The notes under the pieces are model-generated. The model was not told the DNA's origin. It ran no database searches and saw only the letters and a program-made list of their open reading frames with translations. 53,549 bases of DNA from Candidatus Woesearchaeota archaeon (GTDB lineage Archaea > Nanobdellota > Nanobdellia > Pacearchaeales > GW2011-AR1), in the NCBI GenBank assembly GCA_964403535.1, contig CAYOFN010000002.1, positions 1 through 53,549 on the forward strand, read 5' to 3'. Numbering within the stretch: the stretch's first letter is position 1; each line of letters starts with the position of its first letter. Shown here piece by piece: positions 1 to 40,467 of the stretch. A program made the translations under genes and the position numbers.

Positions 1-3000
1 TCCAATATAACCAGCATAACCAATTGGATATTTTACTTTTACAATAGGAGCAGTTGTATCATTTATGATTAGACTAAAAACATCTTTGTAATTATTTCCT
101 AAACTTGCATTAAAACTATGATTTTTGCTGAGATAACTTGAATTAAGAGCGTAAATATTATATAATGAGAAATAGCTTCTTGTCCCCCCTGTATTCACAT
201 AATCAATAATCTCACCAAGTTGCGAATATCCTGTTTCATCTGTATTTAAATTAAAATTATATGCTCCTGTCCGATTATATGCGGTTATATTCGCTTCTGA
301 AACATTACTCCCTGCAGAATTGTTTACATGAGCTTTATACCACCATTTTCTTGTTAAACTCGAACCTGTTCCAACAATCTCTTTGGTGAGATCATAACTC
401 ATATTAATCAGAGTATTATTAGTAGAAGTTCCTGTTACATTAATCACATCAGAAGAAGTTTCATATACTCTCACATTCTCAACAATATTATTGTCAGAAT
501 CAGTAAAAAAAATCAAAGGAATCAGTGATTTATTTATACTCCCTCCAGTTACTCTATTACTCCCCCCACCCCCATTAAAAGTGAGACATCCAAACACTTG
601 AGTACAATTCCAGATAGTTATATTTGTAAGATTATTTTTTTGTCCGAAGACAAACATTCCATAATAACTATTTGATTTTAGAACAAGCCCATTAAATGTA
701 TTTTTATCAGCTGCACCAAGACTAATACCATTAATTAGATTATCACTTGAAGTGATGTTTGTAATATTATCATAATCACTGTTTTGTAGATATATCCCCT
801 CCCCAAAACTATTTATATATCCATTTTTAATTGTGATATTGTTATAGAGATTTGTATAAATCCCATAATCAGTTGTTCCAACTCTGTCCCCAGTTATATT
901 AAACCCATTTAAATCAATTGTTACATTATGAGCATAAACATTAATACAGGTTCCTGTTGAACTAATATTATTTCTTAAGACATATGTCCTGTTTGCTGTT
1001 ACAATATTTCTACAAGAAGTTATATTTGTGCTAAAATCAACAAAAAATTCAATTTCTTCAGTATTATTTACACTCCCCCCAGTATCATTGCACCAAAAGT
1101 TAGCAGTATAGCTTCCATCTTTCATTGAGGAATTAGTAAAATTAAAAAAAGTAGTGTTTGATTTAGTCATTGAATAATTATTTACAAAATTATCTAAACT
1201 AAATGTGCAAAAACTCAAGTCCCTATTTCCAGAAACATTAAAGTCAATTATATTATTGGTATAAGTAGTATTTGAAGGAGATTTTATTGTTAATCCAGGT
1301 AAAGAAATTGTAATATTTCTTTTTTCAGTCTTATTCCCTCCGTTTTCATTTGTAGCAAATGCCTGGTAAGAATAAATTCCAAAATCCAAACCATCTGTAG
1401 AATTTTTGCTTTGATTAATATACAAATTCCATTTGTCAGTATCATATTTATTCAAATTCATCATATACATTTGATTAATTTCCGACTCTGAGAATGACTG
1501 ATTGATATAAAGTCTGTACTCATCCATTGTCCCATTATAGTAATCATCATCCATTGTGTCTTTACATCCAACTGTTAAATTTGCAAGATTGCTAATTGAA
1601 CCAGTGAAATCTGGATCATTTCCAACTCTCACTCCATCAAACCATAATTCAGTAGTATCTCCTCTTCTCTGTCCAACAACAAAATGCCATTCATTATTGC
1701 AAATTGGAGTTGCCCACTCAAGTGTAGAACCAGCATCAGTATCACTTATAAAATTTAAGGATAATAAATTTGGAGTTCCATACCCTCCTATCTCCATCTT
1801 ATACATTATATTCCCCGGACTGGTCAAAGTGCTTCCTTTTCTGCTTAAGTCTGTGTCTGTTGTATAATTGCAATTTAACCACATCATCATAGCAAAATCA
1901 GCAGCATATGGATTTAATGAGTCACTGTGCGGAACAAAAAAACACTCTCCGTTTGAATTATAATCAGGAGTAGTAAATTTAAAAGCTCCTCCAAACTTTC
2001 CTTCAGGAACCCAGTCTGGTGAATGTGCTTTTGCTGGAGCAGAAATATTAGTAAGATTTCCATTATTATGATAAGAAGACAGGTCATAAACTATAGTGTT
2101 TGGGAGATAACTTTCACCTAATGCAGACACATTATCAAAATTAAACCAGATTCTAAGGGAGTCGTTCATTATTGTGAAATTTGTTTCATTCCAACTCCAG
2201 ATAACTCCTGTAAGAGCACTGCCTGAGTCATTAATGCTTACATTTATCTCTATGCTTGTATTTTGCGTTGAACTCTCAGAAACAGGAGTTAATGAAGCAA
2301 ATGCAATTTTCGGTAGAGAAGGAGCATAACTTGTATTAACACTAAGAGTAAAATTACTTAGAGAAAAATTACACTGGCTTGCATTATCACACGCAAGGCA
2401 GTTCCAAATATATTTTTTATTATCAGTTAAATTCACTTTAAACATAGATTCATTGCTTATCCCACTCCTTTCTAGAGTTTGATTCAAATGCCATCCTCCA
2501 CTCCAATTTCCATATAAACTAATATTTTCAAGATTCTGGTCATCTGTAGCAGAACAATTAAAATTCAGACTTGAATTAATTGTAGAGATATTATTATTTG
2601 GCGGAGAATTCAGAGTTACATTTGGAAAGTAATCAACTCCAGGCACACCTGAAACTGTAATATTTCTTTCTTCAGTTTTTCTTCCTTCTCCTGCATTTGC
2701 AACAAATGCTTGGTAAGAATAAGTTCCTAAATCTAAACCATCTGTAGAATTTTTACTTTGGTTTATATACAAACTCCACTTGTCAGCATCGTACTTTCTT
2801 AAATTCATCATATACAATTGAGAAATCTCAGTTGAATTAAGAGATTTATTCCATATCATAAACTCATCAATTGTTCCATTCCAAGCTCCATTATTTACTA
2901 TAGGATTATTTTCTAATCCAACTCCAATTCCTACATCTACAGTATTTGTATTAATTGTCCCTCCAACACTGCCACTACTTTCATATGCTCCATCTACATA

Positions 3001-6000
3001 AATTGTGGCAGTGTTCCCATCATAAGTGACTGCACCATGATACCATTGATTATTATTTAGAGTAGTACTTCCTGCAAGACTATAATCAGTTCCAGCAGTA
3101 TGTTCTGCACAAAAAGAAAGCTTACTGCTAGCTAAACCAATAATCCAATTACAATCTAATACTCCTCCATCTCCTCCACCCCCACCTTTAGCAGTAACTA
3201 CATCTATATCATCACTAAAACAAGTTGAAAAAGCACAGGAACCATCACAACTAGCTCCTTTTCTTTTAAACCAAAAAGAAATTGTAAAATTAGTTAAATC
3301 CAGATTATCAGAGTCAGGAACATAAACTCTTTTTGTTTCTTTTCCATCAAACTCAAGTCCCTTACCATACTTTCCAGTTATATTTACAATTGGAGAGCTT
3401 AATGTTGCATTATTATCATTACCAGCAATATCAAGGGCAAGTGTAGCACTTTCACCAAGAGAAGATAAATTTTCAAAATTAAACATTAAAACTAAATCAT
3501 TCTCAAAAATAGTATGATTACTTCCATTCCAATTCCAAACTATTTTATTAAGTGGATTGAGTAGAGAATCAGTAATACTTACATTTATCTCTATGCTTGT
3601 ATTTTGTGTTGAAATCTCAGAAACAGGAGTTAGTGAAGTAAATGATACACCTAATCCTTGAAGAATATTAATCTCACTTGAATTCTTTTTTGCTCCATAA
3701 CCTGCAGGATTTCTAGGGGTTATCTCACATATCCATGTATCTCCTGCTGTGAGATTTCCAGAATCTAGAATATATGAAGCACTTTTATTATTCTCAACTT
3801 CCAGGCTTAGAGTGAAGTTTGTAACATTATTCTTAAACCAAGTCATATTCCCACTTAATGAACACCCCCCAGTAATTATAAATGAACAATTAAGATTATC
3901 ATCAGTCTCTGGAGAAATAGGAGAAATTTGAGGTGTTGTAGTTACAGGAACTCCACAAACATTTACACTTCTTTCTTCAGTTTGATTTAAATTTCCAACA
4001 ATATCCACAGCATAACCTGTAATTGTATGAGTATCTAATTCCAAATTTGTAAAATTATGAGAATACTTATATTCACTTGCATTATACAAACTTTGAATTT
4101 CTGCTGCTGAAAGTGAACGATTGAAAATAAGAATATCATCCAAACTTCCATTAAGCAAATTAGAAGTGGAATATCTACATCCAATAACACAATAAGTTGG
4201 GTCTGGAGAAACATAATCAACATCAGTATCTTTTGTAGCAAGAACATTTCCATTAAGATAGTGATATGCTCCTGTTCCATTAAACATTAAAACAAAATTA
4301 TTCCACTTCTCCCAACTCCATAAAGTTAAATTATTTTGACCAATACTAATGCTTCCATATGAGGTACTTGAATAAGAGTATAGTGCATTTCCACTTCTCC
4401 CAAATCTAATATAATTCCCCTCATTGCAAGCAAGAAAGTAATGAGCTCCTTCATCTGTTGAAATCTCCCTCACCCACAATGAGATTGTGAAATTTGAATT
4501 AGTTAAGTTAAATGGAGAACCAAGCTTAAGATAACTTCCAGATTTTCCATCAAACTCAAAACTTTTTCCATAAACCCCAGACTCATTTAAAGTAGCACCA
4601 CCAAGAGCACTTCCATTATTAGAAGAACTGCTTCTATCCAAAACATCTCCTGAGGAATTTAAATCATCCATTCTCCACCACCCAACTAAAGATTTATCAA
4701 ACTCAACAAATGAATAATGTTGATTTGCATCATCTGTAGATAAATTAACATAAATTGAGGTTGCACTTAGGTTTGAGTTATTTGCAGGAGTAGGCAGAGT
4801 AAAATTAATATCAGGAGCAACTGAATCATCTCCAATTCCACTTCCTGTTAAATTTTCAACTCTGTAATTTTCTCCTTCAATCTTTGCATAAACTCCACTA
4901 TTCCATGTTCCTGCTGAAGCTTCTGCTTCTGTAAATCTTATTATATTTGTACAGGTTTTATTTACATTATTTATCAAAAGTGCATCAGGACAAATGTAAA
5001 CTCCTTCATTAAGTGTATTTGGAACAAATAAAGTATGATTTGTAGCAATTCCAGTAACTTCAGATACATTAACAACTGTTTTAGTGTCTGTAGCTCTTAT
5101 TACTAATCTTGATAAATTAACACTCCCCTCTGCAAATAATCCATATACTTTTAATCTTTTTCCATAAACATCACTTGTAAAATTAATAAACTGACTTTCT
5201 GTATAATTCCAATTATTTACAAGAGTAAGATTAGTAGAACCATTTACAGAATAATTTCCTGTTTCTGCATCAACAGGACTAAGGAATGTTGAAGGAGCAA
5301 GATTAACACAAGTTCCATTCAGCCATATAGCCTCAGGATTGAAAACAGCTCCTGTAAAATTACTTGCACATAAAGTATAATTAAGAGTAATTTTTCCTTG
5401 AGGATTTACTGTTGAATTTGCAAGATAAATTCCAGATAAAGTTAAAGTCGGAGCAGTTATATTAATTCTTGCTGTTGTTCCGTTGTAGCCAGTTGCAGTC
5501 GCATTTCCAGTACTAGTAATTGAAGTTGTAGCATTGATGTAGATTGTGCCTGCTGAACCATCAGCACTAGTGCAGCAAGTTGTTCCCCAGTTTTCCTCTC
5601 CCGCAATATTTTCAATAATTGCACCAGTTAAGTCCAATGTGTTTGCATGAAGAGCAATCCGTCCACCACCTCCACCCGCAGCACTGGCTCTATCCCCATC
5701 ACCACCATTCGCTGAAACATAACTTGAGATAGTTAAATTATCAGCAACAATTAGTATGCTACCACCTGCGCTTCCGCTTCTGCTTGCATCTTCGTAAGAA
5801 CTTGCTGTTACATTGCCAAGTAAAACCACCTTTCCAGTAGCATTAATGAAAATAGCCCCCCCTCCAGTCACCCCCACACTGTAATAATTCTCACCGCCAC
5901 TCCCCAAACTTGTTGGCCATGCTTCAGAACCATAAGCAGGGTCACTACTCCCTCCACCTTTTCCACCATGGCTTGCACCAATAGCATTGCTGCTTGAACC

Positions 6001-9000
6001 GCCCGGACCCACAGTTGGTTCAAACCCTAGATGGTCTGCACTCAAAACAGAGTAAGAATCAACATATAAGTCAACTACATTTAAGACTACTCCAGTACCA
6101 TCTCCCTGGAAAGTCAAATTAGGCTGGAAATCCAGTGTTGCACCATTTGTAACATTAATTGTGTGAAATGTATGACCCCTCCCTGTCAATGCCATACTCT
6201 CTTTTATTGTGAGGTTTACATTAGCACCTTCAACTAAAGAAAGGGTTCCATGGTGGCCAGGCAGTGCAGTGCCTGATCCAGCATCTATCCCTCCAGAAAC
6301 ATCTATATCTCCTGCGAAAGTACTTGACAAATATTCAAGAGAGACTCTTCCCCCAGAGCCTCCACCACCCCCATTTGTACCTATGAAATTCCCTCCGTCT
6401 GCAAAAATGCTACCCTCTCCAGTAAGATTAGAAGAAATTATCCAGATACTTCCCCCCGAGCCTCCCCCTCTATCAACATTTTGCCCAGCAGAAGAGAGAT
6501 TTCCATTGACCACAATGTTCCCAGTTGCATTTATAAAAATAATTCCTCCCCCTGCACCTCCACCAATCCCACTATATATCCCGCCTCCACTACCAAAATC
6601 AGTGGGATGGGCAGCAGAACCATACACCTTATCCCAATCATACACTCCTGCTCCAAGACTTCCATAGCATCCTCCCCGACTATAAGTAGATGAGCCTCCA
6701 GGGCCAAGAGTCATCAACCACCCCAACCCATCTGTATAAATCTTCCCGCCAGATTGCACATCAACACTCTCAGCAGTTATGCTTATGTTTCCAGCAGTTA
6801 AATTTCCTCCAGATTGAATTGTTAGATTTCCAGAAAGATTTAAAACAAACCCGCATCCATGATTTGTTCCTAGGCAGTTTGTTTCTGTGTTTTGCAATGC
6901 CCCCCCGTTTTTTATTATCATATTATTCGCAGAAAAAACATATCCATCTGTAATCAGATGTTCTGATGTGATATTGCAGGTTGTTTGCTCATCTCCTTCA
7001 TCACATCCTGTCTCAATTAACAAACTGTTTTCAACAAAAGTTTCTTTATATCCTCCTTTTGTGCAACTTATATTATAAGAATAATTCACATTAGGGATAA
7101 TTGATTTTTCAGATTCCCATAATTTAGTTAAAAAATTCCAGGACATATCATATGATGTTGAGTCATTAAAATTAATAGTGCAAAATGCATTTTGAAAAAC
7201 ATCAACATACCCATTTTTAGAAACAACTGCAAAATCTAAAATCCCATCACCATTAAAATCCAGAGAATCAATCGCAGGCTGTTTTCCTGCAGTTGTTCCT
7301 ATGTCTCCAAGATTAAGAGGATATCTTAGAATAAGACCGCCAGTATAATTGAATATAAAAACCTCATCATTTGCACCTCCTGCAATAATTTCATCTATTC
7401 CATCTGCATCAAAGTCTGCAGTATAAATAGAATATATTGCAATTGCAGTACCTGTTCCATCAATATCATAAGTCCAGTTGTGCGCTGTTAGTTTTTCAGC
7501 ATCTGTTAAATCATATAAATCAAGCATATCTACCTCTCCCCAATTATAAGCACCAGTGGTTCCATAAATCAACTTCTTATCACCATTTGGATATTGATAT
7601 TCCATAATCTCATTTCCCTGAGCATCTGAAAATCCTCCTCTCCATAATCTAGTTCCATTATAAGAGAAGATTTTTATTCCAGTAGCACCCCTACCATAAC
7701 CTGTGATAACTATCTCTTTTCCAGCACTTGTAGAATTATACTCGCCTGCATGAATTGCCATGGGGACATAGTTAGAGCCATTAGACAGTTGAGCCCCACT
7801 ACTTCCGTTATATACAAAATGATAATTCCTTGTAATAATAATCGGGTCATCATAACCATCTCCATCCAAATCAATTGCATAAATCTCGTGCCCGTAAGAG
7901 CCTGTTGCATCTCCTGTATTTGCACTCCATTTTAAACTCCATGAAGTCCCATCACTTGTATTAAAAGCATATACCCATGGAGGAGAAGCTAGTTTAGAAG
8001 CAACAATATCATTCTCAAACCCATTTCCATCTAAATCAACAATATCAATAGAGCCAACATCTCCTCCAAGAGTATAACTCCAAACCTGGCTTCCTGTTTC
8101 ATCAAAAACCCTGACATAATCTCCTGTTTCTGCAGAAACAATGTCATTCTCAAATCCATCCCCATCCAGGTCCCCTACTTCAATCTGATAAATACTCCAG
8201 CTTGCCTCATCCCCTGGCCAGCTTCCAGAAGTTATTTCTGAACCATTGGGATAAAACGCCCTTAACCCTGCATTTGCCTGAGCTACTCCCACAACAATGC
8301 AGTTCTTTTTGCCAGAATTCAAACAATCAAAAGAAGCAAGCGAATAAGCACCATTGCTGGAGTCTATATCCAGACTATCCCATACTGTTTGCCCTAATCC
8401 AGCAAGTTCAAGATTATCTTTTGTAAAATTTGCTTTAAAAGTTATTGTGGGTCCATCAATATCCTGTGATAAGACAATAGAAGCATCATCATATAATGAA
8501 ACTACAACATTATCACTTAAACTTGCATTCTGATATGTTCCTGTTGAATCAAAGCATGAAACATTATAAGAATAATTGCCCACAGGTATACAAGAGTGTC
8601 CTGTTTTATATCCACAATCACCATAAAACTCATACTGGTTTGTTGTATCATTAAATAACATTTCTCCAAGAGGAAGCCAAAATCCAGTCTTATTATTAGA
8701 AATATTACATTTATATGAAGAGCCATTTAAACTGCTCCCTGTAAAATTTGTGAAATTCGCATAAAATCTTGTGAGATTTGTATATACTATTGAGGCATCA
8801 GAATCATCCCAGATTGTTAAATTAGAATTAGATGTATTCATACTAGGGTCAACAATATAATCATACTCAACATCTTCAATTGATTTTAAGTCAAATGTAG
8901 GGTAACTCTCATTATCTCCTAAATTACTAAGATAAATCTTATACCAATTCTCTTGATTTATATTCTCAAATCTTGCAATCTCCTCATTATCTCCTTCTCT

Positions 9001-11751
9001 GTAGACTGCAACTTCAGCAGAAGTATTTTTTGCTCTAGCATAAATTGTAATGTCCCTGGTTTTATCAAGTGGTTGTTTAAAACTAACTCTTAAATACTCC
9101 CCATCTGGAATTAGAGAATAATTTTCATCCTGCGCTTTGACTTGTTCATAAACATCTTCAATAAATGTATAATTTTCATCTAAATGTTCTGCTTTTGAAA
9201 TTTCAATAATTAATTCATAAGTCTGGTTTGATAAATGAGGAACAATCCATTCAATATAGTCAATAAATCCATCTTCATCTAAATCATAAGATGTAAAATC
9301 AACTTCTTGCTTAATCCATTTTCCAGTAGATTCAAGAATCTCAGAACCATTAACTTCAATTTCTTGGTTAATTATCTCTTCACTTATCACACTTCCAGTT
9401 AATAAAGAATTTTCCTGAGTTTTATTCTCACTAATTAATGAATTCTCAGTATTATCTGTTATTTCTTCAGGTTGCTCTTCAATTGTTTTATTAACTTCCC
9501 CTTCTGTTGCTTCAATTGTTTGATTTACTTTTGTTTCATTAATCTCTTCAGTTGTCTGATTGATTATCTCATCACTAGTTATATTAACTACAGGAATTTC
9601 ATTAATTATCTGAGTTTCTTCTGTACTCTCTTGCTTTATTTCCTCTTCACTTAAATTAAGCTCTTGTTTTTCACTTTTAACCTCTTCCTGAACATACCCG
9701 TATAACTTAATGTTATTATTACTCTCACTTCTTATCTTATTAGGAATACGAGTATAAGCTAAAATATCAGTATAGTTTAATTCATCATCAGCAGAAATTA
9801 TTATTCTTTTTCCATTTGAAATATTCTCTTCTACTGCCTGAGGAGCAGGTGTATAATACTCAATTGCAATCTCTTCTTTTTGAGTATTATTAGCAATAGA
9901 AGTTAAATCTAGTATTTTTTTATTATTTGTCTCTGTAATCTCACTTCCTTCTTCTCCTTCACTTATCACTGCCCCAGTTATCTGACTTTTAGTTATCTTT
10001 CCCCACAATCTAGTCAAGATTCCTGGTTTCTTACCACTTTCTCCTATAATCTCTCCTGTAATTAAACTACTCCTCTCTGCACCATCAACTTTATTTTCAT
10101 ATTCCTTAACTGATTTTTCTAGATCTACAACTTCTTCATCTGTCTTAATTGTAATATTCTCAGCTGATTTAGGCAGTTCTACAATTAATCCTCCTTTTTC
10201 TGATTTATTTGTTATTTTAACCCACTTTACAGGCTGTCCTATAATTGCTTTATACTGAATAGACCTAATCTTTACTTCTGAAAGGTTCCCAATACTAATA
10301 TTCACACTCTGGTTTACAATAATTGTTTGATTAACCAAAGTTTGATTAAATATACTCTCATTTGTAGTGGTTAAATTAATTGTCTGATTTGTGGTTATAT
10401 TCTTTACAATCTCTTCTCCACTAACTGAGATTTCCTCACTTACTTCACTTAAAACTTCCTCACCATAAACTAAACTTATTTTTAATTCTCCATTTTTAGC
10501 TAAAACTCCAAATTCATTAAGATTAATTTCAGTAGAACTCTCTTCATCTTGCAGAAAATCTTCACCAAATCCTTCTTCACTCACTGAGTATTCAGTAGAG
10601 ACTACTGCTAAATTTTCCTCAATTTGTAAGGTAACTGCGTTTTCATCAAGCTTTTCATTATTTTCCAGTCTTACAGAACTCTTTTTTATCGTCGCTGTCT
10701 TTCCATTTTCCAAAGAATAAGTAAATTCCTCATCTTTTCTGCAACTTCCATCAACAAACTTTCCACTTTCTCCAGTATTTTCACTCTCTCCTATAACCTC
10801 TCCTGTAATTAAACTACTCTCTCCTGAACTTTCACTGTTCTCTGTTGCACTTTCTTCACTTACCTCAGAACTTTCTGAAGTTGATTCACTGCTTTCTACT
10901 ATCTGGGTTTCTTCACTTGCTTGTTCTTGAGGTTGTTTATTATTCTCTGGTGTTTGAGTTTCTTCATTTACTGGTCCTTGAGCTGGTTCTTCTATTATCT
11001 CTTGAGATTCTACTCCCTCTTCTGGAGTTATCTCCTCTACAATACTTCCATCTACTCCTCCCTCTTCACTTGCAGGATTTTCACTTTCCTGAGATTCTTG
11101 CTCACTTGCATTTTCTTGAGGTTTTTCTTCACTCACATTCTTTTCTTCTTCAACAAGCTCTTCACCTAAATTAGACAACACTAAAGTAAAGAATACTTCA
11201 GGATAAGTTACTTTTTCACCTAAAAATCCAATTCCAGAACCATTCCCACTTAACTTCTTTCCTTCAATATAGTAATCTCCATTAAAATTAGGCTCTAGAA
11301 TTTCATTTAATTCAATTTCTTTTCTAAAACCTTCTTGTTCAATAATCAACTTAGAGCCTAGAGGAAGAAGTTCACCTTGCTTTAAACTTAATTTTAACAC
11401 ACCAGATACATTCTCTCCAGAGAGGTACTGATTTTGAATATCTAAACTAACATTTCCTGTAATCTGCTGAGTATAAATAAAAAAAATAGCACCAATAAAA
11501 AACAAAAAAACAATTCCCACACCTACAATTAACTTTCTACCCTGAAGAATATTAGGAGAACTTTCATTCATAAGAGTTGTTCTACTCTCTCCCCTCTTTC
11601 TTTTCTTGCTCTCTTTTTTACTTAACCACTCTCTATACGCAGATTTATCTCCAATATATCTTTTTCTTACATGAGAACCATCTCTATAGCTTTCATAGTA
11701 GTAAGGTCCGAACTTTTTCCCCTTTTTGTAGACATAGCGAACATGAACCAT
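1..11751 (-). CDS. Giant (>=3917 codons, 3' end runs off the window start) membrane-anchored cell-surface protein. Parts in order: basic Tyr-rich N-terminus, single TM helix, acidic low-complexity linker, FG-GAP/VCBS-like Ca-binding repeats, Gly-rich PMP-like beta-helix repeats, three LamG (Laminin_G_3-like) modules, NosD/PbH1-like beta-helix.
   Basis: Absent from the ORF track because it has no stop inside the window. Hand translation of the minus frame from ATG 11751 (MVHVRYVYKKGKKFGPYYYESYRDGSHVRKRYIG...TTLMNESSPNILQGRKLIVGVGIVFLFFIGAIFFIY) stays open wherever I spot-checked, down to position 1. All other frames over these 11.7 kb carry only ORFs of 152 aa or less. Motifs read directly: DLDGDGFENDIV (~8140-8190), DLDGNGFENDIV (~7990-8040), DLDGDGYDD (~7845-7880), DFDADGIDE (~7385-7425), DFNGDGILD (~7230-7265), GGGAIFINATG (~5850-5885), NVDRGGGSGGSIWI (~6440-6480), LDDILIFNRSLSAAEIQSLY (~4090-4150). 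Confidence 0.85.
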   Translation of the reverse strand, partial: MVHVRYVYKKGKKFGPYYYESYRDGSHVRKRYIGDKSAYREWLSKKESKKRKRGESRTTLMNESSPNILQGRKLIVGVGIVFLFFIGAIFFIYTQQITGNVSLDIQNQYLSGENVSGVLKLSLKQGELLPLGSKLIIEQEGFRKEIELNEILEPNFNGDYYIEGKKLSGNGSGIGFLGEKVTYPEVFFTLVLSNLGEELVEEEKNVSEEKPQENASEQESQESENPASEEGGVDGSIVEEITPEEGVESQEIIEEPAQGPVNEETQTPENNKQPQEQASEETQIVESSESTSESSEVSEESATENSESSGESSLITGEVIGESENTGESGKFVDGSCRKDEEFTYSLENGKTATIKKSSVRLENNEKLDENAVTLQIEENLAVVSTEYSVSEEGFGEDFLQDEESSTEINLNEFGVLAKNGELKISLVYGEEVLSEVSEEISVSGEEIVKNITTNQTINLTTTNESIFNQTLVNQTIIVNQSVNISIGNLSEVKIRSIQYKAIIGQPVKWVKITNKSEKGGLIVELPKSAENITIKTDEEVVDLEKSVKEYENKVDGAERSSLITGEIIGESGKKPGILTRLWGKITKSQITGAVISEGEEGSEITETNNKKILDLTSIANNTQKEEIAIEYYTPAPQAVEENISNGKRIIISADDELNYTDILAYTRIPNKIRSESNNNIKLYGYVQEEVKSEKQELNLSEEEIKQESTEETQIINEIPVVNITSDEIINQTTEEINETKVNQTIEATEGEVNKTIEEQPEEITDNTENSLISENKTQENSLLTGSVISEEIINQEIEVNGSEILESTGKWIKQEVDFTSYDLDEDGFIDYIEWIVPHLSNQTYELIIEISKAEHLDENYTFIEDVYEQVKAQDENYSLIPDGEYLRVSFKQPLDKTRDITIYARAKNTSAEVAVYREGDNEEIARFENINQENWYKIYLSNLGDNESYPTFDLKSIEDVEYDYIVDPSMNTSNSNLTIWDDSDASIVYTNLTRFYANFTNFTGSSLNGSSYKCNISNNKTGFWLPLGEMLFNDTTNQYEFYGDCGYKTGHSCIPVGNYSYNVSCFDSTGTYQNASLSDNVVVSLYDDASIVLSQDIDGPTITFKANFTKDNLELAGLGQTVWDSLDIDSSNGAYSLASFDCLNSGKKNCIVVGVAQANAGLRAFYPNGSEITSGSWPGDEASWSIYQIEVGDLDGDGFENDIVSAETGDYVRVFDETGSQVWSYTLGGDVGSIDIVDLDGNGFENDIVASKLASPPWVYAFNTSDGTSWSLKWSANTGDATGSYGHEIYAIDLDGDGYDDPIIITRNYHFVYNGSSGAQLSNGSNYVPMAIHAGEYNSTSAGKEIVITGYGRGATGIKIFSYNGTRLWRGGFSDAQGNEIMEYQYPNGDKKLIYGTTGAYNWGEVDMLDLYDLTDAEKLTAHNWTYDIDGTGTAIAIYSIYTADFDADGIDEIIAGGANDEVFIFNYTGGLILRYPLNLGDIGTTAGKQPAIDSLDFNGDGILDFAVVSKNGYVDVFQNAFCTINFNDSTSYDMSWNFLTKLWESEKSIIPNVNYSYNISCTKGGYKETFVENSLLIETGCDEGDEQTTCNITSEHLITDGYVFSANNMIIKNGGALQNTETNCLGTNHGCGFVLNLSGNLTIQSGGNLTAGNISITAESVDVQSGGKIYTDGLGWLMTLGPGGSSTYSRGGCYGSLGAGVYDWDKVYGSAAHPTDFGSGGGIYSGIGGGAGGGIIFINATGNIVVNGNLSSAGQNVDRGGGSGGSIWIISSNLTGEGSIFADGGNFIGTNGGGGGSGGRVSLEYLSSTFAGDIDVSGGIDAGSGTALPGHHGTLSLVEGANVNLTIKESMALTGRGHTFHTINVTNGATLDFQPNLTFQGDGTGVVLNVVDLYVDSYSVLSADHLGFEPTVGPGGSSSNAIGASHGGKGGGSSDPAYGSEAWPTSLGSGGENYYSVGVTGGGAIFINATGKVVLLGNVTASSYEDASRSGSAGGSILIVADNLTISSYVSANGGDGDRASAAGGGGGRIALHANTLDLTGAIIENIAGEENWGTTCCTSADGSAGTIYINATTSITSTGNATATGYNGTTARINITAPTLTLSGIYLANSTVNPQGKITLNYTLCASNFTGAVFNPEAIWLNGTCVNLAPSTFLSPVDAETGNYSVNGSTNLTLVNNWNYTESQFINFTSDVYGKRLKVYGLFAEGSVNLSRLVIRATDTKTVVNVSEVTGIATNHTLFVPNTLNEGVYICPDALLINNVNKTCTNIIRFTEAEASAGTWNSGVYAKIEGENYRVENLTGSGIGDDSVAPDINFTLPTPANNSNLSATSIYVNLSTDDANQHYSFVEFDKSLVGWWRMDDLNSSGDVLDRSSSSNNGSALGGATLNESGVYGKSFEFDGKSGSYLKLGSPFNLTNSNFTISLWVREISTDEGAHYFLACNEGNYIRFGRSGNALYSYSSTSYGSISIGQNNLTLWSWEKWNNFVLMFNGTGAYHYLNGNVLATKDTDVDYVSPDPTYCVIGCRYSTSNLLNGSLDDILIFNRSLSAAEIQSLYNASEYKYSHNFTNLELDTHTITGYAVDIVGNLNQTEERSVNVCGVPVTTTPQISPISPETDDNLNCSFIITGGCSLSGNMTWFKNNVTNFTLSLEVENNKSASYILDSGNLTAGDTWICEITPRNPAGYGAKKNSSEINILQGLGVSFTSLTPVSEISTQNTSIEINVSITDSLLNPLNKIVWNWNGSNHTIFENDLVLMFNFENLSSLGESATLALDIAGNDNNATLSSPIVNITGKYGKGLEFDGKETKRVYVPDSDNLDLTNFTISFWFKRKGASCDGSCAFSTCFSDDIDVVTAKGGGGGDGGVLDCNWIIGLASSKLSFCAEHTAGTDYSLAGSTTLNNNQWYHGAVTYDGNTATIYVDGAYESSGSVGGTINTNTVDVGIGVGLENNPIVNNGAWNGTIDEFMIWNKSLNSTEISQLYMMNLRKYDADKWSLYINQSKNSTDGLDLGTYSYQAFVANAGEGRKTEERNITVSGVPGVDYFPNVTLNSPPNNNISTINSSLNFNCSATDDQNLENISLYGNWSGGWHLNQTLERSGISNESMFKVNLTDNKKYIWNCLACDNASQCNFSLSNFTLSVNTSYAPSLPKIAFASLTPVSESSTQNTSIEINVSINDSGSALTGVIWSWNETNFTIMNDSLRIWFNFDNVSALGESYLPNTIVYDLSSYHNNGNLTNISAPAKAHSPDWVPEGKFGGAFKFTTPDYNSNGECFFVPHSDSLNPYAADFAMMMWLNCNYTTDTDLSRKGSTLTSPGNIMYKMEIGGYGTPNLLSLNFISDTDAGSTLEWATPICNNEWHFVVGQRRGDTTELWFDGVRVGNDPDFTGSISNLANLTVGCKDTMDDDYYNGTMDEYRLYINQSFSESEINQMYMMNLNKYDTDKWNLYINQSKNSTDGLDFGIYSYQAFATNENGGNKTEKRNITISLPGLTIKSPSNTTYTNNIIDFNVSGNRDLSFCTFSLDNFVNNYSMTKSNTTFFNFTNSSMKDGSYTANFWCNDTGGSVNNTEEIEFFVDFSTNITSCRNIVTANRTYVLRNNISSTGTCINVYAHNVTIDLNGFNITGDRVGTTDYGIYTNLYNNITIKNGYINSFGEGIYLQNSDYDNITNITSSDNLINGISLGAADKNTFNGLVLKSNSYYGMFVFGQKNNLTNITIWNCTQVFGCLTFNGGGGSNRVTGGSINKSLIPLIFFTDSDNNIVENVRVYETSSDVINVTGTSTNNTLINMSYDLTKEIVGTGSSLTRKWWYKAHVNNSAGSNVSEANITAYNRTGAYNFNLNTDETGYSQLGEIIDYVNTGGTRSYFSLYNIYALNSSYLSKNHSFNASLGNNYKDVFSLIINDTTAPIVKVKYPIGYAGYIG
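1308..3641. repeat. Intragenic tandem module duplication with a period of about 1341-1347 bp (447-449 codons) inside the giant ORF
   Basis: About 180 bp at 1308-1490 aligns without gaps to 2655-2837 at high identity by eye. About 60 bp at 2241-2300 aligns to 3582-3641 (catttatctctatgcttgtattttg...ctcagaaacaggagtta). Both offsets are multiples of 3. Confidence 0.75.
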
Positions 11752-11887: not shown

Positions 11888-12057
11888 TTAAGCACTTTTT
11901 ATTTTTGCTTTTTCAATCCACTTCTCTTTCTGCTGGCATAATGAACAAACATAAATTAATTTGTTTTTATTGCTTTCCAAAACTTTTAATGCAGTCCCTT
12001 TTAGTTTTCCAAATCTTTCTTCAATCTCTTCATTGCATATGCAACATGTTCTTACCA
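11888..12057 (-). CDS. Candidate small zinc-ribbon protein (CxxC...CxxC, about 56 codons) with an apparent 1-nt frame break
   Basis: Minus strand reads ATG at 12057, MVRTCCICNEEIEERFGKL. After an A-run near 11998-12003 the sequence continues in another frame as TALKVLESNKNKLIYVCSLCQQKEKWIEKAKIKSA, with the stop at 11888-11890. The span is 170 nt by my count, which is not a multiple of 3. It is below the 60-aa track threshold either way. Confidence 0.3.
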
Positions 12058-12109
12058 TCCAAAAAACAAAGTCAATAAGTTTTATAAACTTAACTTTACT
12101 AAACTATTA

Positions 12110-15319: not shown

Positions 15320-16129
15320 TTATTTCTTAAAAACTTTAAAATTAGTCCAAGCAACTTCAAATAACTGCTCTAAAGCCTGAGCAAAAAAACTAGCATTTAA
15401 CCATATAGCAACATCATAATTAGGATGAACCTGCTCATCATCAAGAATCATAAACAATAATTGTTCTGAATCTATGATAACAAATCTAGCTTTTAGTTTA
15501 TCAACATCTCTTATCTCAGCTACTTTACTCAAATCTTTAGCAACATTCTTATTAGACTCATTAATCGGAGCAGCAATTCTAATTTTTACTCCTCTTTTTT
15601 TTGCTTTTTCAAGAGAAGGCATTAAGTGTTCAAGTTTTCTATTAATTCCAGAAGAAGTTGTCACAATTGTAATTGTTTTTTCAGCTTCTCTAACTAACAT
15701 GTCAAGATGATTATACACATTTTGTCTTCCTCTTAAACTTCCTGATAAGTCACTTGGCTCAACAAACTTAACACCTTGGTGAAACAAGCTTGATAACTCT
15801 TTTAAAATATCCTCTTGCTTTAATCTTTCTAATCTTTTGCTTTTCTCATCTGCATCTCTTACAAGATTTTTCTTAACTCTTTCAATAACCTCCTCAGGTT
15901 TTAAAGCCACGAACTTAATTGGCTTACCAAGCTTCATAATAATAAACCCTTTTTTCTCCAAACTTTCTAGAATATCATAAGTTCTGCTTCTAGGAACATC
16001 ACTTATATTGCTAAGTTCTCCTGCAGTTGAAACACCTCTGGAAAGAAGTGCTGCCCAGACTTTAACTTCATATAGGTTTAAGTCAAATATCTTCCTTAAC
16101 CTGCTTAAAAACTCCTCTTTGACAATCAT
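15320..16129 (-). CDS. TrmB-family transcriptional regulator
   Basis: 269 aa. N-terminal wHTH (LYEVKVWAALLSRGVSTAGELSNISDVPRSRTYDILESLEKKGF), typical of TrmB. Confidence 0.85.
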   Translation of the reverse strand: MIVKEEFLSRLRKIFDLNLYEVKVWAALLSRGVSTAGELSNISDVPRSRTYDILESLEKKGFIIMKLGKPIKFVALKPEEVIERVKKNLVRDADEKSKRLERLKQEDILKELSSLFHQGVKFVEPSDLSGSLRGRQNVYNHLDMLVREAEKTITIVTTSSGINRKLEHLMPSLEKAKKRGVKIRIAAPINESNKNVAKDLSKVAEIRDVDKLKARFVIIDSEQLLFMILDDEQVHPNYDVAIWLNASFFAQALEQLFEVAWTNFKVFKK

Positions 16130-16220
16130 TTTTTGTAAGTGTTAAAACTTAAAAGAAGTACTAGTATTTAAATCTTTTTATCATTCAGGCATCTATTTTA
16201 AAATTTTATCGACGATAAAT

Positions 16221-19019
16221 CTAAAGTTTTCTTAATGAGAGCCAGACTTTTTTCTCTTTAATTTTCTCTTCAGATTGAGTCTTAAACCCTTTAATCTTAT
16301 CTTTGCTTATGATTATCTTTTCTGCACCAGTCCTGTTTTTGATAAACTCTTCATGTTCAGAAAGATCTAAATCAGACTCAATAACCAAATCTATTCTGTC
16401 GCTTTTTACAAGTCCTGCTTTCTTTCTTAGAGCCTGAACTTTTCTTGCTATCTCCCTAGCATATCCTTCTTGCTCAAGTTCAGGAGTCATCTCTGTATCT
16501 AAATCAATAAATCTGTCATGTTCGAACTTATAAGCATCTTTCTTAAATTCAACTTTTTTAAGATTTAACTGGCTTTTTAAAATCTCCTCGAATTTATCTG
16601 AGTCTCTTATGCTTGGCAGATAAATTACTGCCTCTGCCAGAGGCCATTTTAATCCAACCCCTTTTTCATTTCTTACTGCTAATCCTGCTTCAATAATCTT
16701 TAAGAGTATAGAAAAATCATGCTCAAGCTTATTGTTTATTTTCCCAAGATTAAGAGTAGGAAATCCTGCTAAATGCACACTTTCCTCTTTCACAATCTTC
16801 TCTTTCCTTAATTCTTGCCAGATTTCTTCAGATACAAAAGGAGCAATTGGCGCAAGTAATTTTACAACTCCAATTCTTATCTGATTTAAAACTTCCTGAA
16901 CCTCTCCTCCTCTTTCTCTTATCATCTGAATATAAGTTCGTGAAACCTCAGAAACTAAAAAATCCTCTATTTCTTTAACAACATCTGGAAATCTGAACTC
17001 ATTATAATCTTTAACTACTCTCTCTATCATTGAATTAAACCTGCTTAAAATCCACTTATCCTCAATGCATTGCTTTTCCTCTCCCTTTTTGTCTATTTGA
17101 TTTATAAAACTATTCAGATTAACAAGAACTCTGAAAACTTTTTGAATTTCCTTAAACTCTCCTTCATCAAATGCAAAATCCTCTCCTTTAGACACTTTAG
17201 CAAAATAATACCTCATATAGTCCCTCCCATACTTTGCAATAATCTCATGAGGAGAAACAATATTCCCTAGAGATTTGGACATTTTCTTTTTCCCTAAATC
17301 CAAGACCATCCCATGAACAAGGATATTCTCAAAAGGCTTTTTATTAAACTTTATCTCAGAAAGTATTAATTGGGAGTTCCACCATCCTCTAACCTGGTCT
17401 TTTCCTTCAATATTTAAATCAGCAGGCCAGAATTTTTTGTTTGTACTATTAAGAGCTGCCCAGCTACTGACTCCAGAGTCAAACCATACATCAAGAACCT
17501 CTTCAACTCGTTTCATCTTTCCACCACACTTACACTTTAAGAATACTTCATCTATCTCAGGTTTATGAACCTCTTTAACTTTCTTTCCAGACAGCTTTTC
17601 AAGTTCACTAATGCTTCCAACTACTTTTTTTTCACTACATTTTTCACAAATCCAGATAGGTAAAGGAGTACCCCAGTATCTTTTTCTTGAAACAGGCCAG
17701 TCAGAGATTCCTTCAAGCCAGGCATTCATTCTTAGTTTCATCCATGGAGGAGCCCAGTTAGTTTTTTCATTTTCCTGCAGAATTTTTTTATGTATTTTTG
17801 ATATTCTCAAAAACCATTGTGGAAGAGAGACCATTAGCAAAGGAGATTTACATCTCCAGCATAAGGGGTAATCATGAGTATACCTCACCTGATGCACAAG
17901 AAATCCTTGTTTTTTTAAATCTTCAATAATCTCGCTATCAACCACTCTTGCTTTCTTTCCAGCATACTTTCCACTCTCTTTTGTAAGCAATCCATCAATT
18001 CCTACTGGACAGAGAATATCTATTCCTGCTTCTTTTCCAACTTCATAATCTTCTTTTCCATGTCCAGGAGCACAATGAACCAAACCTGTTCCCTCTTCAA
18101 GATTTACATATCTGCTTGAGAGCACAACTCTGTAAGCATCTTTTGTTTTTAAGTTTAAATTATTACTTAAAGGGTTCTCATACTTCCACCCCTCTAACTC
18201 TTTTCCAGAATACTCCTTCTCAACACTATAACCTAACTCTAATTCAGTCATTATTTTCTGAACAAGTTCTTTTGCTATAATCCATTTTTCTCCATTACTT
18301 AATTTAACTTCTTGATACTCAAATTTAGGGTTAACCATCACTCCAGTATTTCCAGGAAGAGTCCACGGAGTAGTAGTCCAGATAATCAAGTAAGTGTTTT
18401 CTTTTCCTTTTAATGGAAATTTAACATAGATTGAATTATCTTCTTGTTTAGAATACTCAATTTCATTATAAGCAACTGCTGTCTCGCATCTTGGGCATAC
18501 ATGGACTGGATACTGTCCAAGATAAAGAAGCTCCTTTTTATCTGCTATTTTAAAACAATCCCAAATACTTTCCACATACTCCTTATCAAGTGTAAGATAT
18601 GGATTTTGAAAATCCATCCACACTCCAAGATTCTCAAACTCAGAATTCATTACTCCAATGAACCTTGTAGCAAATTCCTTACATTTTCCTATAAACTTTT
18701 TTACTCCAAATTTTTCTATATCTTTTTTACTCTTGCTTTTTATCTCTTTTTCAATCTGAAACTCTATTGGAACCCCATGAGTATCATATCCTGCTCTATC
18801 AAATACATTTTTCCCCTGCATTCTCTGACTTCTCATTGCAATATCCTTCAGAATTTTATTCAGGGCAGTTCCCATATGAATATGTCCTGTTGCATAAGGT
18901 GGTCCATCCATCAAGTAGAACTTTTTTCCTTTTGCATTCTTCTCCTTAGACTTTTCATAAATCTTCTTCTCTTTCCAAAACTTCAAAATCTCTTCTTCTG
19001 TTTTTTTTGTTTCAGGCAT
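16221..19019 (-). CDS. ileS: Isoleucyl-tRNA synthetase
   Basis: 932 aa. HIGH-type motif (PPYATGHIHMGTA), KMSKS, editing-domain region and several CxxC zinc motifs. Confidence 0.95.
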   Translation of the reverse strand: MPETKKTEEEILKFWKEKKIYEKSKEKNAKGKKFYLMDGPPYATGHIHMGTALNKILKDIAMRSQRMQGKNVFDRAGYDTHGVPIEFQIEKEIKSKSKKDIEKFGVKKFIGKCKEFATRFIGVMNSEFENLGVWMDFQNPYLTLDKEYVESIWDCFKIADKKELLYLGQYPVHVCPRCETAVAYNEIEYSKQEDNSIYVKFPLKGKENTYLIIWTTTPWTLPGNTGVMVNPKFEYQEVKLSNGEKWIIAKELVQKIMTELELGYSVEKEYSGKELEGWKYENPLSNNLNLKTKDAYRVVLSSRYVNLEEGTGLVHCAPGHGKEDYEVGKEAGIDILCPVGIDGLLTKESGKYAGKKARVVDSEIIEDLKKQGFLVHQVRYTHDYPLCWRCKSPLLMVSLPQWFLRISKIHKKILQENEKTNWAPPWMKLRMNAWLEGISDWPVSRKRYWGTPLPIWICEKCSEKKVVGSISELEKLSGKKVKEVHKPEIDEVFLKCKCGGKMKRVEEVLDVWFDSGVSSWAALNSTNKKFWPADLNIEGKDQVRGWWNSQLILSEIKFNKKPFENILVHGMVLDLGKKKMSKSLGNIVSPHEIIAKYGRDYMRYYFAKVSKGEDFAFDEGEFKEIQKVFRVLVNLNSFINQIDKKGEEKQCIEDKWILSRFNSMIERVVKDYNEFRFPDVVKEIEDFLVSEVSRTYIQMIRERGGEVQEVLNQIRIGVVKLLAPIAPFVSEEIWQELRKEKIVKEESVHLAGFPTLNLGKINNKLEHDFSILLKIIEAGLAVRNEKGVGLKWPLAEAVIYLPSIRDSDKFEEILKSQLNLKKVEFKKDAYKFEHDRFIDLDTEMTPELEQEGYAREIARKVQALRKKAGLVKSDRIDLVIESDLDLSEHEEFIKNRTGAEKIIISKDKIKGFKTQSEEKIKEKKVWLSLRKL

Positions 19020-39228: not shown

Positions 39229-40467
39229 CTAATAATAACTTGCTTCTCCAAAGTCCTCTGTTCTTGTAGGTTTCTTTGTCAATAACACTATTAGTACAAC
39301 AAGCAACACAATAAAGATTATTGCTAAAACAACTGTCAGTATCAAAACAGAACTCACAACTGCGCTTGTTCCTTTTTCAACATTTGCACTGAATCTTACA
39401 GTCTTTAGAACTTCATCTCCAGACTTAACATTTATAGTTATAGTCTGTGTTCCTTCTTCAGCACTTTCTGTTGCTTTAACCTTTACATTCACTGTTTTGC
39501 TAGAATCAGCAGAGATGCTTACTATAGGTTCATCTATTGTAACGATCAAACCTTTAACATCATCTACTACTTCTAATGTGTATATAGCCATTCTATCACT
39601 TGGGTTAACTACAACTAAATCAAAGTTAGTTGATTCTCCAATAGCAACATCTTTTGATGTAGCTGTTGACAAAATGTTTCCTATACCACTAGTTACTACT
39701 AGAGTCTTAGTTACTTCTGCTTCAAAATCAAAGCTTTCTACTCTGATTTCCATGTTGTACACTCCAGTTGGGACACCTGTAGGGATAGTGAGGTATACTC
39801 TTCTCTCTACTGCATCTTGTTTAGCGCCTGCCCTGTCATCTTCATCTTCTGGAGTTATATCTCCAAAATAAATCCTTCTTGAAACTCCAAGTTCAGGTAT
39901 TCTCGCAGTAACAAAAACATCATCAATCCTCTGATTTCCAATGTTCTTTAATACCACATCAAGTGCAATAGTGTCTCCTGCAGTAGCTTGTCCTGGTGCT
40001 TCAACAGACAAAACATCTAAACTGTATTGCTCTCTTTTAAGTCTGATGGTGTATTCTTCTTCTACTTCATCATTCTTGTCAGAGATTCTTACATTCAGAG
40101 TTAAAGTCTCGTTTTTGTCATCCATGTCTTGAATTGGAGGCAGAGTTAATGAGAACAACTTAGTATCAGTGTCTCCAGAGATTACATCAAATCTTCCTGT
40201 AGATGAACTAACTTCGTCCTTGTATCCATCTATCCATACCTTCATCTTCAAGTCATCATAGTCGTCATGTGCAGTATATTGAACAGTTATAGGTATATTC
40301 TCACCAGGGTGTGCTGAAAGAACAGTTGCACCTGAAGGTGAAACATCTACATTTTTCATCTCAACTCTGTCAATACTTATGCTTAAAGCTCCAGCAGATA
40401 CTGTAACTAAACTAGCAATCAATACTAAAGCAAGTGTTATTGAAAAATAAATTGCATTATTTTTCAT
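39229..40467 (-). CDS. Secreted, C-terminally membrane-anchored cell-surface protein (S-layer candidate, CARDB/Ig-like beta-sandwich repeats)
   Basis: 412 aa. Signal-like N-terminus MKNNAIYFSITLALVLIASLVTVSAGA. C-terminal TM VVSSVLILTVVLAIIFIVLLVVLIVLL plus a short charged tail. GGAG about 11 nt upstream of the ATG. Confidence 0.7.
   Translation of the reverse strand: MKNNAIYFSITLALVLIASLVTVSAGALSISIDRVEMKNVDVSPSGATVLSAHPGENIPITVQYTAHDDYDDLKMKVWIDGYKDEVSSSTGRFDVISGDTDTKLFSLTLPPIQDMDDKNETLTLNVRISDKNDEVEEEYTIRLKREQYSLDVLSVEAPGQATAGDTIALDVVLKNIGNQRIDDVFVTARIPELGVSRRIYFGDITPEDEDDRAGAKQDAVERRVYLTIPTGVPTGVYNMEIRVESFDFEAEVTKTLVVTSGIGNILSTATSKDVAIGESTNFDLVVVNPSDRMAIYTLEVVDDVKGLIVTIDEPIVSISADSSKTVNVKVKATESAEEGTQTITINVKSGDEVLKTVRFSANVEKGTSAVVSSVLILTVVLAIIFIVLLVVLIVLLTKKPTRTEDFGEASYY

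Follow-up and report, generated by a model that had tools for sequence, protein, structure and literature searches.

The minus strand of contig CAYOFN010000002.1, a 53,549-bp stretch from a Candidatus Woesearchaeota archaeon that was analyzed whole and is called the window here, carries at its left end a giant gene of at least 3,917 codons. This gene is a real, single, intact reading frame. Among its relatives, the N-terminal ~1,000 residues of the product are the conserved, family-defining part, and the FG-GAP, laminin G (LamG) and beta-helix domains beyond them are variable cassettes. We consider it probable that the product is an N-terminally anchored, N-glycosylated adhesin or contact protein, in which a conserved stalk would carry swappable binding cassettes.

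An intact reading frame cut by the contig end

1..11751, minus strand: giant open reading frame (ORF), amino acids (aa) 1-3917; stop-free frame cut by the contig end

A preliminary description of this DNA had proposed a minus-strand frame open from ATG 11751 to the window edge and had named in-frame stops as the sign of several genes or a pseudogene. Computed translation from ATG 11751 to base 1 gave 3,917 codons and no stops. From the base composition of the strand, a stop is expected at 8.4% of codons, and the chance of a frame this open is ~1e-150. The gene fills 22% of the window (11751/53549), as had been estimated, and it was indeed missed by the ORF listing, which omits frames running off an end. 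The window is the entire contig and the frame runs off its end; the true protein is longer, as the description held, and its C-terminus lies outside the assembly. A new domain (DTTAPIV...) is just starting at the window edge, and the protein therefore continues past the contig end. We sought the missing C-terminus in GTDB representative genomes and JGI metagenome contigs; the contig was absent from both, and the best relatives were at most 53% identical. Nor did the homologue search return a protein near-identical to the last 440 aa.

The 5' end of the gene recurs in four assemblies made independently from this organism (ENA ERZ27248922, ENA ERZ27248897, Logan SRR8437287 and JGI 3300028191), in all of which gene callers picked ATG 11751. 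An in-frame stop codon lies immediately 5' of this ATG. We take the start codon as settled because the N-terminal motif described below is conserved from Met-1 across the family. A start at Met-61, which mimics a plain signal peptide, was ruled out on the same ground: aa 1-34 are conserved from Met-1 family-wide. By eye only, a TATA-like A/T-rich box (TTTAAAT) can be seen ~30-40 nt upstream of ATG 11751.

Could the gene nevertheless be an artefact, in that repeats were mis-assembled, several genes erroneously fused or a pseudogene mistaken for an intact gene? Other assemblies of the same organism do end inside it, at window 5851 (assembly L031) and 6474 (L032), and window 1-5850 has no independent assembly support. 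These two longer assemblies match aa 1-1967 with 4 mismatches and aa 1-1759 with 6. Against an artefact stand the absence of any stop across all 3,917 codons and the longest DNA repeat within the gene, which measures only 179 nt at 82% identity; there are no long exact repeats. Every segment has either homologues or a confident fold, and relatives of 4,000-5,800 aa are known on contigs of up to 534 kb. The GC content of the gene is close to that of the remaining contig, and gives no sign of recent horizontal acquisition. Because the frame is stop-free, its 5' end recurs in other assemblies, long exact repeats are lacking and GC matches, a pseudogene or chimeric assembly is very unlikely, and we give the artefact explanation as a whole next to no credence.

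A large family built on a conserved base

The features of the N-terminus and the base are as follows (domain and topology assignments are predictions; 150 relatives were compared).

11650..11751, minus strand: conserved, predicted cytoplasmic N-terminal motif, aa 1-34, MVHVRYVYKKGKKFGPYYYESYRDGSHVRKRYIG; the GPY-type motif common to the family
11533..11649, minus strand: basic linker of the predicted cytoplasmic stub, aa 35-73; from stub charge
11473..11532, minus strand: single transmembrane (TM) helix, aa 74-93, LIVGVGIVFLFFIGAIFFIY, followed by a conserved TG; from a hydropathy scan
11155..11469, minus strand: base domain D1, aa 95-199, beta-sandwich; AlphaFold2 (AF2) predicted local distance difference test (pLDDT) ~90; kept in 126/150 relatives
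10798..11154, minus strand: acidic Ser/Glu/Gln disordered linker, aa 200-318; net charge -37; AF2 pLDDT <50
10420..10797, minus strand: base domain D2a, aa 319-444, beta-sandwich; AF2 pLDDT ~90; conserved
10279..10416, minus strand: sequon-dense disordered linker, aa 446-491, NITTNQTINLTTTNES...; from sequence; AF2 pLDDT <50
9685..10272, minus strand: base domains D2b, aa 494-689, with a YKAIIGxPVKW motif; AF2 pLDDT ~75; 142-146/150 relatives
9322..9681, minus strand: second acidic, sequon-rich disordered linker, aa 691-810; AF2 pLDDT <40; in 45/150 relatives only
8845..9318, minus strand: base domain D3, aa 812-969, beta-sandwich; AF2 pLDDT ~85; kept in 122-141/150

With aa 1-1100 as query, phmmer matched 2,393 clusters among 1.84 billion representative proteins at E<=1e-3; tightening the threshold to E<=1e-10 left 1,860, and to E<=1e-30 left 749. 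Lengths of 3,000-5,817 aa are frequent among them, and in most the alignment begins at residue 1. We then mapped the whole giant protein on the 150 best representatives. Residues 1-1000 were covered in 100-146 of them, the propeller and the Gly-rich solenoid in 1-2, the LamG region in ~27 and the NosD helix in ~24. Coverage drops sharply at ~aa 1000, and the boundary between core and variable part is therefore placed there. Within the core, D2b is the best-conserved part.

In an AF2 model computed from a 48-sequence alignment, the base is made up of four or five beta-sandwich domains, ~900 residues in all, with long acidic, sequon-rich disordered linkers between them. The acidic Ser/Glu/Gln linker that the preliminary description had placed at ~10800-11180 was recovered at nearly the same position. 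D3 carries a conserved DLDxDGxxDYIEW loop (aa 823) with a weak EF-hand_5 match. Sequence and profile searches with the base domains gave no Pfam, NCBIfam or PDB match. Foldseek with the base model gave no match at E<=1e-3, only non-significant similarity to pilin Ig-like (immunoglobulin-like) and CBM32/discoidin-type sandwiches. Since no modelled domain, here or farther along the protein, had a Foldseek match at that threshold, we claim only the fold class for each. The base would act as a flexible, glycan-shielded stalk.

The family opens on the consensus M-V-[YH]-K-K-Y-x-K-x-G-K-x-[YF]-G-P-Y-x-Y-E-S-[YK]-R-..-G-K-V-...-Y-L-G. A GPY-type motif was found in 130/150 representatives and in 38 of the 39 word-search matches. 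Among the motif-bearing sequences that could be aligned on the motif, 120/161 have a Met exactly 14 residues ahead of GPY; G, P and the first Y are invariant in 161/161, which is partly built into the pattern that selected them. The motif (aa 1-34) has no Pfam match at E<=10, and its string found no match in the literature searched, namely open full text.

Past residue 1000, the modules of the relatives vary in kind, number and order. One relative (P0183) has the order base, Ig, LamG, Gly-solenoid, further modules, Gly-solenoid, LamG and NosD; other members have RCC1 or SBBP repeats instead, or Big_13 only. Full-length relatives end in one of three ways: in a conserved ...LNYTDATDSAEIDINVTVP..EG.G.K.S..TFTASLGE domain, in a TM helix with a basic tail, or in a dockerin-like DIN.DGKINV.D motif. 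None of the three is a plain PGF-CTERM. Some relatives would thus have TM helices at the N- and the C-terminus alike.

A minority of the matched clusters is named, as "Nanoarchaeota archaeon," "Candidatus Pacearchaeota archaeon," "Candidatus Nanoarchaeia archaeon" or "Woesearchaeota," and the taxonomic range of the family therefore rests on those few. That the GPY-motif base family and the Gly-rich solenoid family described below are both new to the literature is plausible but unproven. A broader proposal is tentative, and we would sooner doubt than assert it: a very large, undescribed family of Nanoarchaeota-type DPANN archaea may share a chassis (GPY handle, TM helix and D1-D3 stalk) bearing shuffled cassettes that change host or substrate specificity, and the Gly-rich solenoid may be an unannotated domain family of DPANN archaea, bacteria of the candidate phyla radiation (CPR) and predatory bacteria. 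The GPY handle would then serve for targeting or for coupling to an intracellular partner, and the cassettes would comprise the propeller, the Gly-solenoid, LamG, the NosD helix, RCC1 and the dockerin-like ends.

Membrane topology

A basic N-terminal stub and one TM helix at ~11475-11535 had been predicted, and both were found. The stub, aa 1-73, has a net charge of +13; the helix at aa 74-93 is the sole hydrophobic helix that the hydropathy scan detected in the visible 3,917 residues. Every segment of the predicted ectodomain is net negative. Across the family, the stub has a median of 50 aa and a charge of +10, the uncharged hydrophobic stretch has a median of 25 aa, and TG[KRN..] directly follows the helix in 105/150 relatives. 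The stub would remain in the cytoplasm, and the helix would serve as a signal-anchor that is not cleaved off; a median of 25 aa matches TM length and supports a signal-anchor.

The main rival of the signal-anchor reading is an extended signal peptide. Here, the N-terminal motif and the hydrophobic segment would form a long leader that is cleaved off behind the conserved TG. Retention of the mature protein would then fall to the missing C-terminus, through a TM helix, a conserved C-terminal domain or a dockerin-like motif, or the protein would be released, and the role of the motif would be like that of ESPR, the extension found in bacterial autotransporter and TpsA proteins of very large size. 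Such a leader would account for the motif beginning exactly at Met-1 and for the [ST]G[KRN..] just past the hydrophobic segment in 105/150 relatives. A C-terminal TM helix and basic tail occur in ~10 of the 45 longest relatives, and others have the conserved C-terminal domain or the dockerin-like motif; each of these could be the true anchor. However, the hydrophobic stretch is of TM length in the family, and the h-region of a classical signal peptide encoded on the same contig is much shorter. Conservation this strong over 35 residues also points to a role for the motif in the mature protein, or to a specific partner in the cytoplasm. We regard the cleavable leader as unlikely, if still the most serious competitor, and prefer the signal-anchor.

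Enrichment of N-glycosylation sites

The preliminary description had called N-x-S/T sequons extremely frequent and had suggested a count against background. With a sequon defined as N-x(not P)-S/T, the visible protein contains 187, or 4.77 per 100 aa. Composition-preserving shuffles gave 71+-7.3, an excess of ~16 standard deviations, and a count of the reversed pattern [ST]-x-N gave 87. Elsewhere on the contig, density averages 0.54 sequons per 100 aa over 39 ORFs. Hence, sequon density is ~2.6-fold above that expected from composition and 9-fold above that of the other contig proteins, and the claim of extreme frequency stood up. Of all Asn residues, 48% lie in sequons, the count of N-P-S/T is 0, and 186 of the 187 sequons fall in the predicted ectodomain. 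The family as a whole has a median density of 4.2 per 100 aa. At the level of sequence, this is strong evidence for selection for N-glycosylation sites. The archaeal oligosaccharyltransferase AglB would glycosylate many of the 186 ectodomain sequons.

Distal modules

Beyond the base, the following features were assigned to aa ~1130-3917 (HMM, hidden Markov model).

7192..8364, minus strand: FG-GAP repeat region, aa 1130-1520, presumed beta-propeller; FG-GAP and FG-GAP_3 HMMs
5332..6999, minus strand: Gly-rich predicted beta-solenoid, aa 1585-2140; two duplicated modules, aa 1610-1790 and 1846-2018
4093..4542, minus strand: Laminin_G_3 domain 1, aa 2404-2553; E 7.9e-19
2821..3336, minus strand: Laminin_G_3 domain 2, aa 2806-2977; E 1.4e-24
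1477..1917, minus strand: Laminin_G_3 domain 3, aa 3279-3425; E 2.3e-11
1036..1212, minus strand: Big_13-like Ig domain, aa 3514-3572; 25.1 bits, just below the cutoff of 27; homologues carry PF19077
472..993, minus strand: right-handed parallel beta-helix (Beta_helix/NosD), aa 3587-3760; HMMs on the isolated segment
1..381, minus strand: beta-rich module without a Pfam match, aa 3791-3917 (RKWWYKAHVN...NITAYN...); 39% identical to the closest relative (P0001)

At least five DxDxDG loops of FG-GAP/VCBS type had been reported at 7225-8190. We count exactly five, at aa 1194, 1239, 1294, 1446 and 1498 (window 7243-8172), with a spacing of ~45-55 residues and one wider gap. They lie inside above-cutoff Pfam matches (scan of aa 1101-1600) to FG-GAP (38.8 bits, cutoff 22.1, three stretches) and FG-GAP_3 (44.2 bits, cutoff 26.9, five stretches). 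Internal blade repeats run through aa 1130-1520, amounting by eye to ~7-8 blade-like units.

The two Gly-rich modules are 38-46% identical to each other. AF2 models the module as all-beta stacked short strands (pLDDT 83.9, predicted TM-score 0.87), and its Foldseek neighbours are nearly all beta-solenoids, among them Ag43, EtpA, HMW1, TibA, pertactin, tailspikes, pectate/alginate lyases and the Ca-dependent MpAFP helix. All of these matches fall short of significance (best E 3.6e-3, TM-score <=0.35). In a search with window 5332-7071, the module had 247 homologues at E<=1e-5, almost none of which has a Pfam domain there; the named sources include Pace- and Woesearchaeota, CPR bacteria, Bdellovibrio, Planctomycetes, Lentisphaerae and Armatimonadetes. 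The consensus reads ...GPGxG..HGGxGG..YGS..P..GSGGG..GGGAI..GGGSGGSIW..GGGGGGRIA.... The region had been described as blocks of PMP-like beta-helix repeats. The duplication and the predicted beta-solenoid bear out the blocks, and as a modelled fold class the beta-solenoid holds; the PMP label falls, as Chlam_PMP gave no match at E<=1 with the whole protein or with pieces over aa 1501-2300. Separately, we note that both assembly breaks, at window 5851 and 6474, lie inside the duplicated module, though its two copies are no more alike than stated above at the protein level.

Three LamG jelly-rolls, each ending in a D(D/E)..I.N.SLS..EI..Y motif, had been recognized by eye. Three Laminin_G_3 domains (PF13385, concanavalin A [ConA]-like lectin/glucanase) are indeed present, with an overall score of 163 bits (cutoff 27.6, E 6e-48), and each has the motif. 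Residues 2300-3500 form three units of Ig-like, Laminin_G_3 and Ig-like domains, with a DNA period of ~1345 nt.

The NosD/PbH1-type beta-helix assigned to ~1-1020 was upheld over window 382-1020. That segment (aa 3578-3790), scanned in isolation, scores 37.7 bits for Beta_helix (cutoff 25.9) and 27.6 bits for NosD (cutoff 23.6); within a 500-aa piece, Beta_helix reaches only 25.6 bits. Homologues of the region carry PF13229 and PF05048. The helix does not take in the last 127 aa (window 1-381); in the closest relative, P0001, another Ig-like domain comes next after this terminal module. RTX, PGF-CTERM and ATPase families had no match in the visible 3,917 residues.

Proposed function and its rivals

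A heavily N-glycosylated adhesin or host-contact protein had been suggested in the preliminary description. The surface-contact part of that suggestion fits, because a positive-inside stub, one TM helix and an acidic ectodomain are combined with FG-GAP, LamG, beta-helices and Ig-like spacers; the sequon enrichment agrees with it. The adhesive, host-directed part stays conditional. The distal cassettes (propeller, solenoids, LamG lectin-like domains and NosD helix) would bind ligands, in part Ca-dependently; probable ligands would be glycans or a lattice of protein borne by a host cell or a substrate. Exchange of cassettes on a constant base would then tune partner specificity.

Several points weigh against an N-terminally anchored, glycosylated adhesin. 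The argument for binding comes solely from domain classes, and LamG and beta-helix domains occur in glycan-degrading enzymes too. PDB sequence and profile searches found nothing, and the Foldseek matches were likewise all non-significant. A scan of 49 further ORFs on the contig turned up no AglB/STT3 or other glycosylation gene. The C-terminal anchors of relatives mean that anchoring could be C-terminal and the N-terminal helix cleaved, and the conserved TG right behind the helix could be a signal-peptidase site.

Might the protein be an enzyme? As a surface-tethered glycan-degrading or cell-wall-attacking enzyme, it would have a catalytic helix of NosD/pectin-lyase type and possibly a catalytic Gly-rich solenoid, with LamG and Ig domains as carbohydrate-binding and spacer modules. 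The above-cutoff Beta_helix/NosD scores agree with this, and the Foldseek matches of the Gly-rich solenoid include alginate/pectate lyases, polygalacturonases and phage depolymerase tailspikes. In Nanobdella, pectin-lyase-like surface proteins have come under discussion as degraders of the host envelope (bioRxiv 10.1101/2023.10.27.564410), and in predatory bacteria giant genes have been tied to cell-wall degradation (bioRxiv 10.1101/2023.11.21.568195). However, the structural matches are all non-significant, the adhesin solenoids (Ag43, EtpA, HMW1, TibA and pertactin) rank at least equally high, and no glycoside-hydrolase or lyase family HMM matched the giant protein. We therefore place an enzyme below the cleavable leader in likelihood, as a rather improbable reading.

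Least likely among the functional alternatives is a structural component of the envelope or glycocalyx, such as an S-layer-associated or halomucin-like protective coat without specific partner recognition. Very high sequon density and acidic disordered linkers would suit a coat, and protective giant secreted glycoproteins exist in archaea (halomucin, PMC11573180). However, variable cassettes on a constant base are the pattern of recognition proteins, not of lattice-forming ones, and ligand-binding domain classes dominate the distal part. We accordingly see little to recommend a coat, and the anchored contact protein remains our preferred reading.

Genomic context

The giant gene's neighbours are housekeeping genes (arginyl-tRNA synthetase and a MiaB-like radical-SAM enzyme). 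The contig, with a GC content of 33%, also encodes a TrmB regulator, isoleucyl-tRNA synthetase (IleRS), pyruvate:ferredoxin oxidoreductase subunits, acetyl-CoA synthetase, Rad50, a primase-like Toprim protein, aEF-1alpha (aEF1A), aEF-2 (aEF2), ribosomal proteins S7 and S12, NusA-KH, an Rpb1-type RpoA and two tRNAs. The small-genome archaeon that had been supposed as the source agrees with these archaeal genes and with the Nanoarchaeota/Pacearchaeota relatives, which give good support for a DPANN archaeon of Nanoarchaeota (Pace-/Woesearchaeota-like) type. From the DPANN placement, its lifestyle would be episymbiotic.

Directly upstream of the giant gene, a 56-aa ORF (11888-12058, minus strand) has two CxxC pairs (MVRTCCICNEE...VCSLCQQKE...) and is Zn-ribbon-like. 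It has no Pfam match and is called as a gene in four independent assemblies. The contig also encodes a 412-aa protein (39229-40467, minus strand) with a short classical signal peptide, Ig-like (FixG_C/NPCBM_assoc) matches, a C-terminal TM helix and a short tail; its sequence is 17.5% Ser+Thr and has one sequon only. By its predicted features this is a conventional surface protein, contrasting with the N-terminus and the sequon load of the giant one.

The ORF for RNA polymerase subunit A (50897-53549, minus strand) has Rpb1 domains 2-5 in one frame that is open to the window edge, and looks like an unsplit A'/A'' gene. In many archaea, this gene is split. Of the 37 mismatches to the ENA assembly L031, 33 cluster at 15701-16821 (the TrmB/IleRS 3' region) and 4 fall in 5.9 kb of the giant gene; the cluster suggests local strain-level recombination. 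The GC skew of the plus strand is strongly negative along nearly the whole contig (G 12.8%, C 19.9%) and follows the predominance of minus-strand genes.

Significance and comparison with known systems

Giant surface proteins are leading candidates for host recognition and holding by ultra-small DPANN archaea, and almost none has been characterized. The single gene described here adds little by itself. Its weight lies in a family of at least 749 clusters (E<=1e-30), in which the anchor and stalk are constant and unannotated and the outer modules interchangeable. Searches with the N-terminal motif and base can pick out such proteins in fragmented metagenomes, which opens the way to comparing cassettes among lineages that differ in host. 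The conserved, predicted cytoplasmic motif is a defined target for studying the export of proteins this large, or their coupling to the inside of the cell.

Some parts of the protein recall well-known folds. Its presumed propeller is like those of integrin alpha and other FG-GAP (VCBS) proteins in having above-cutoff FG-GAP and FG-GAP_3 matches and five DxDxDG loops. Unlike integrin alpha, it has no thigh/calf or beta-subunit context, and the cassette is present in only 1-2/150 family representatives. The Gly-rich region is like Chlam_PMP and autotransporter passenger solenoids in its GGAI-like strings and predicted beta-solenoid, and its best Foldseek neighbours are autotransporter and TPS (two-partner secretion) solenoids. 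It differs from them in having no Chlam_PMP match at E<=1 and no autotransporter barrel, and belongs to a widespread Pfam-less family of its own.

In overall plan, the protein is like bacterial giant adhesins (MpIBP of Marinomonas primoryensis, SiiE and LapA-type RTX adhesins), which are retained at the cell by a proximal part, reach outward through an extender or stalk, and bind ligands with distal modules. The distal modules of such adhesins are Ca-dependent and include beta-solenoid and sugar-binding domains (PMC5550230, PMC6272769). Bacterial giant adhesins are type I-secreted, with an N-terminal plug in the outer membrane and C-terminal RTX repeats, whereas here we find a predicted archaeal signal-anchor and no RTX match. 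The stalk differs as well, consisting of beta-sandwiches and disordered glycan-site linkers and not of dozens of identical Ig repeats.

Among archaea, the SPEARE/SVXNc_0300-type proteins of Nanohaloarchaeota are reported to begin with a Sec signal peptide, to contain WD40-like propellers and to end in a VirB4/TraG-like ATPase, a second ATPase gene lying adjacent (PMC10266531). Compared by description only, the protein analyzed here is unlike them in beginning with a conserved, predicted cytoplasmic GPY motif and a TM helix. Its 3,917 visible residues contain no ATPase domain, and neither do the upstream neighbours; the C-terminus and downstream genes lie beyond the contig.

The closest parallels are the giant LamG/ConA proteins of DPANN archaea. 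In nanohaloarchaea, large LamG/ConA-like proteins rich in N-glycosylation sites have been reported and are presumed to mediate host attachment (PMC7443923), and cultivated DPANN archaea have giant membrane-anchored proteins of up to 9,409 aa (PMC10266531). Nanobdella has sequon-rich pectin-lyase-like and lectin-like surface proteins (bioRxiv 10.1101/2023.10.27.564410). Among huge archaeal proteins, whose function is "not understood," Laminin_G_3 is reported to be the commonest domain (PMC11573180). The present protein shares with this group a small-genome archaeal source, a length of thousands of residues and a large share of coding capacity, as well as LamG/ConA-like, Ig-like and beta-helix modules, many predicted N-glycosylation sites and a presumed role in host attachment. 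We conclude that giant LamG-rich DPANN surface proteins are an already known kind, to which this protein of at least 3,917 residues adds a member.

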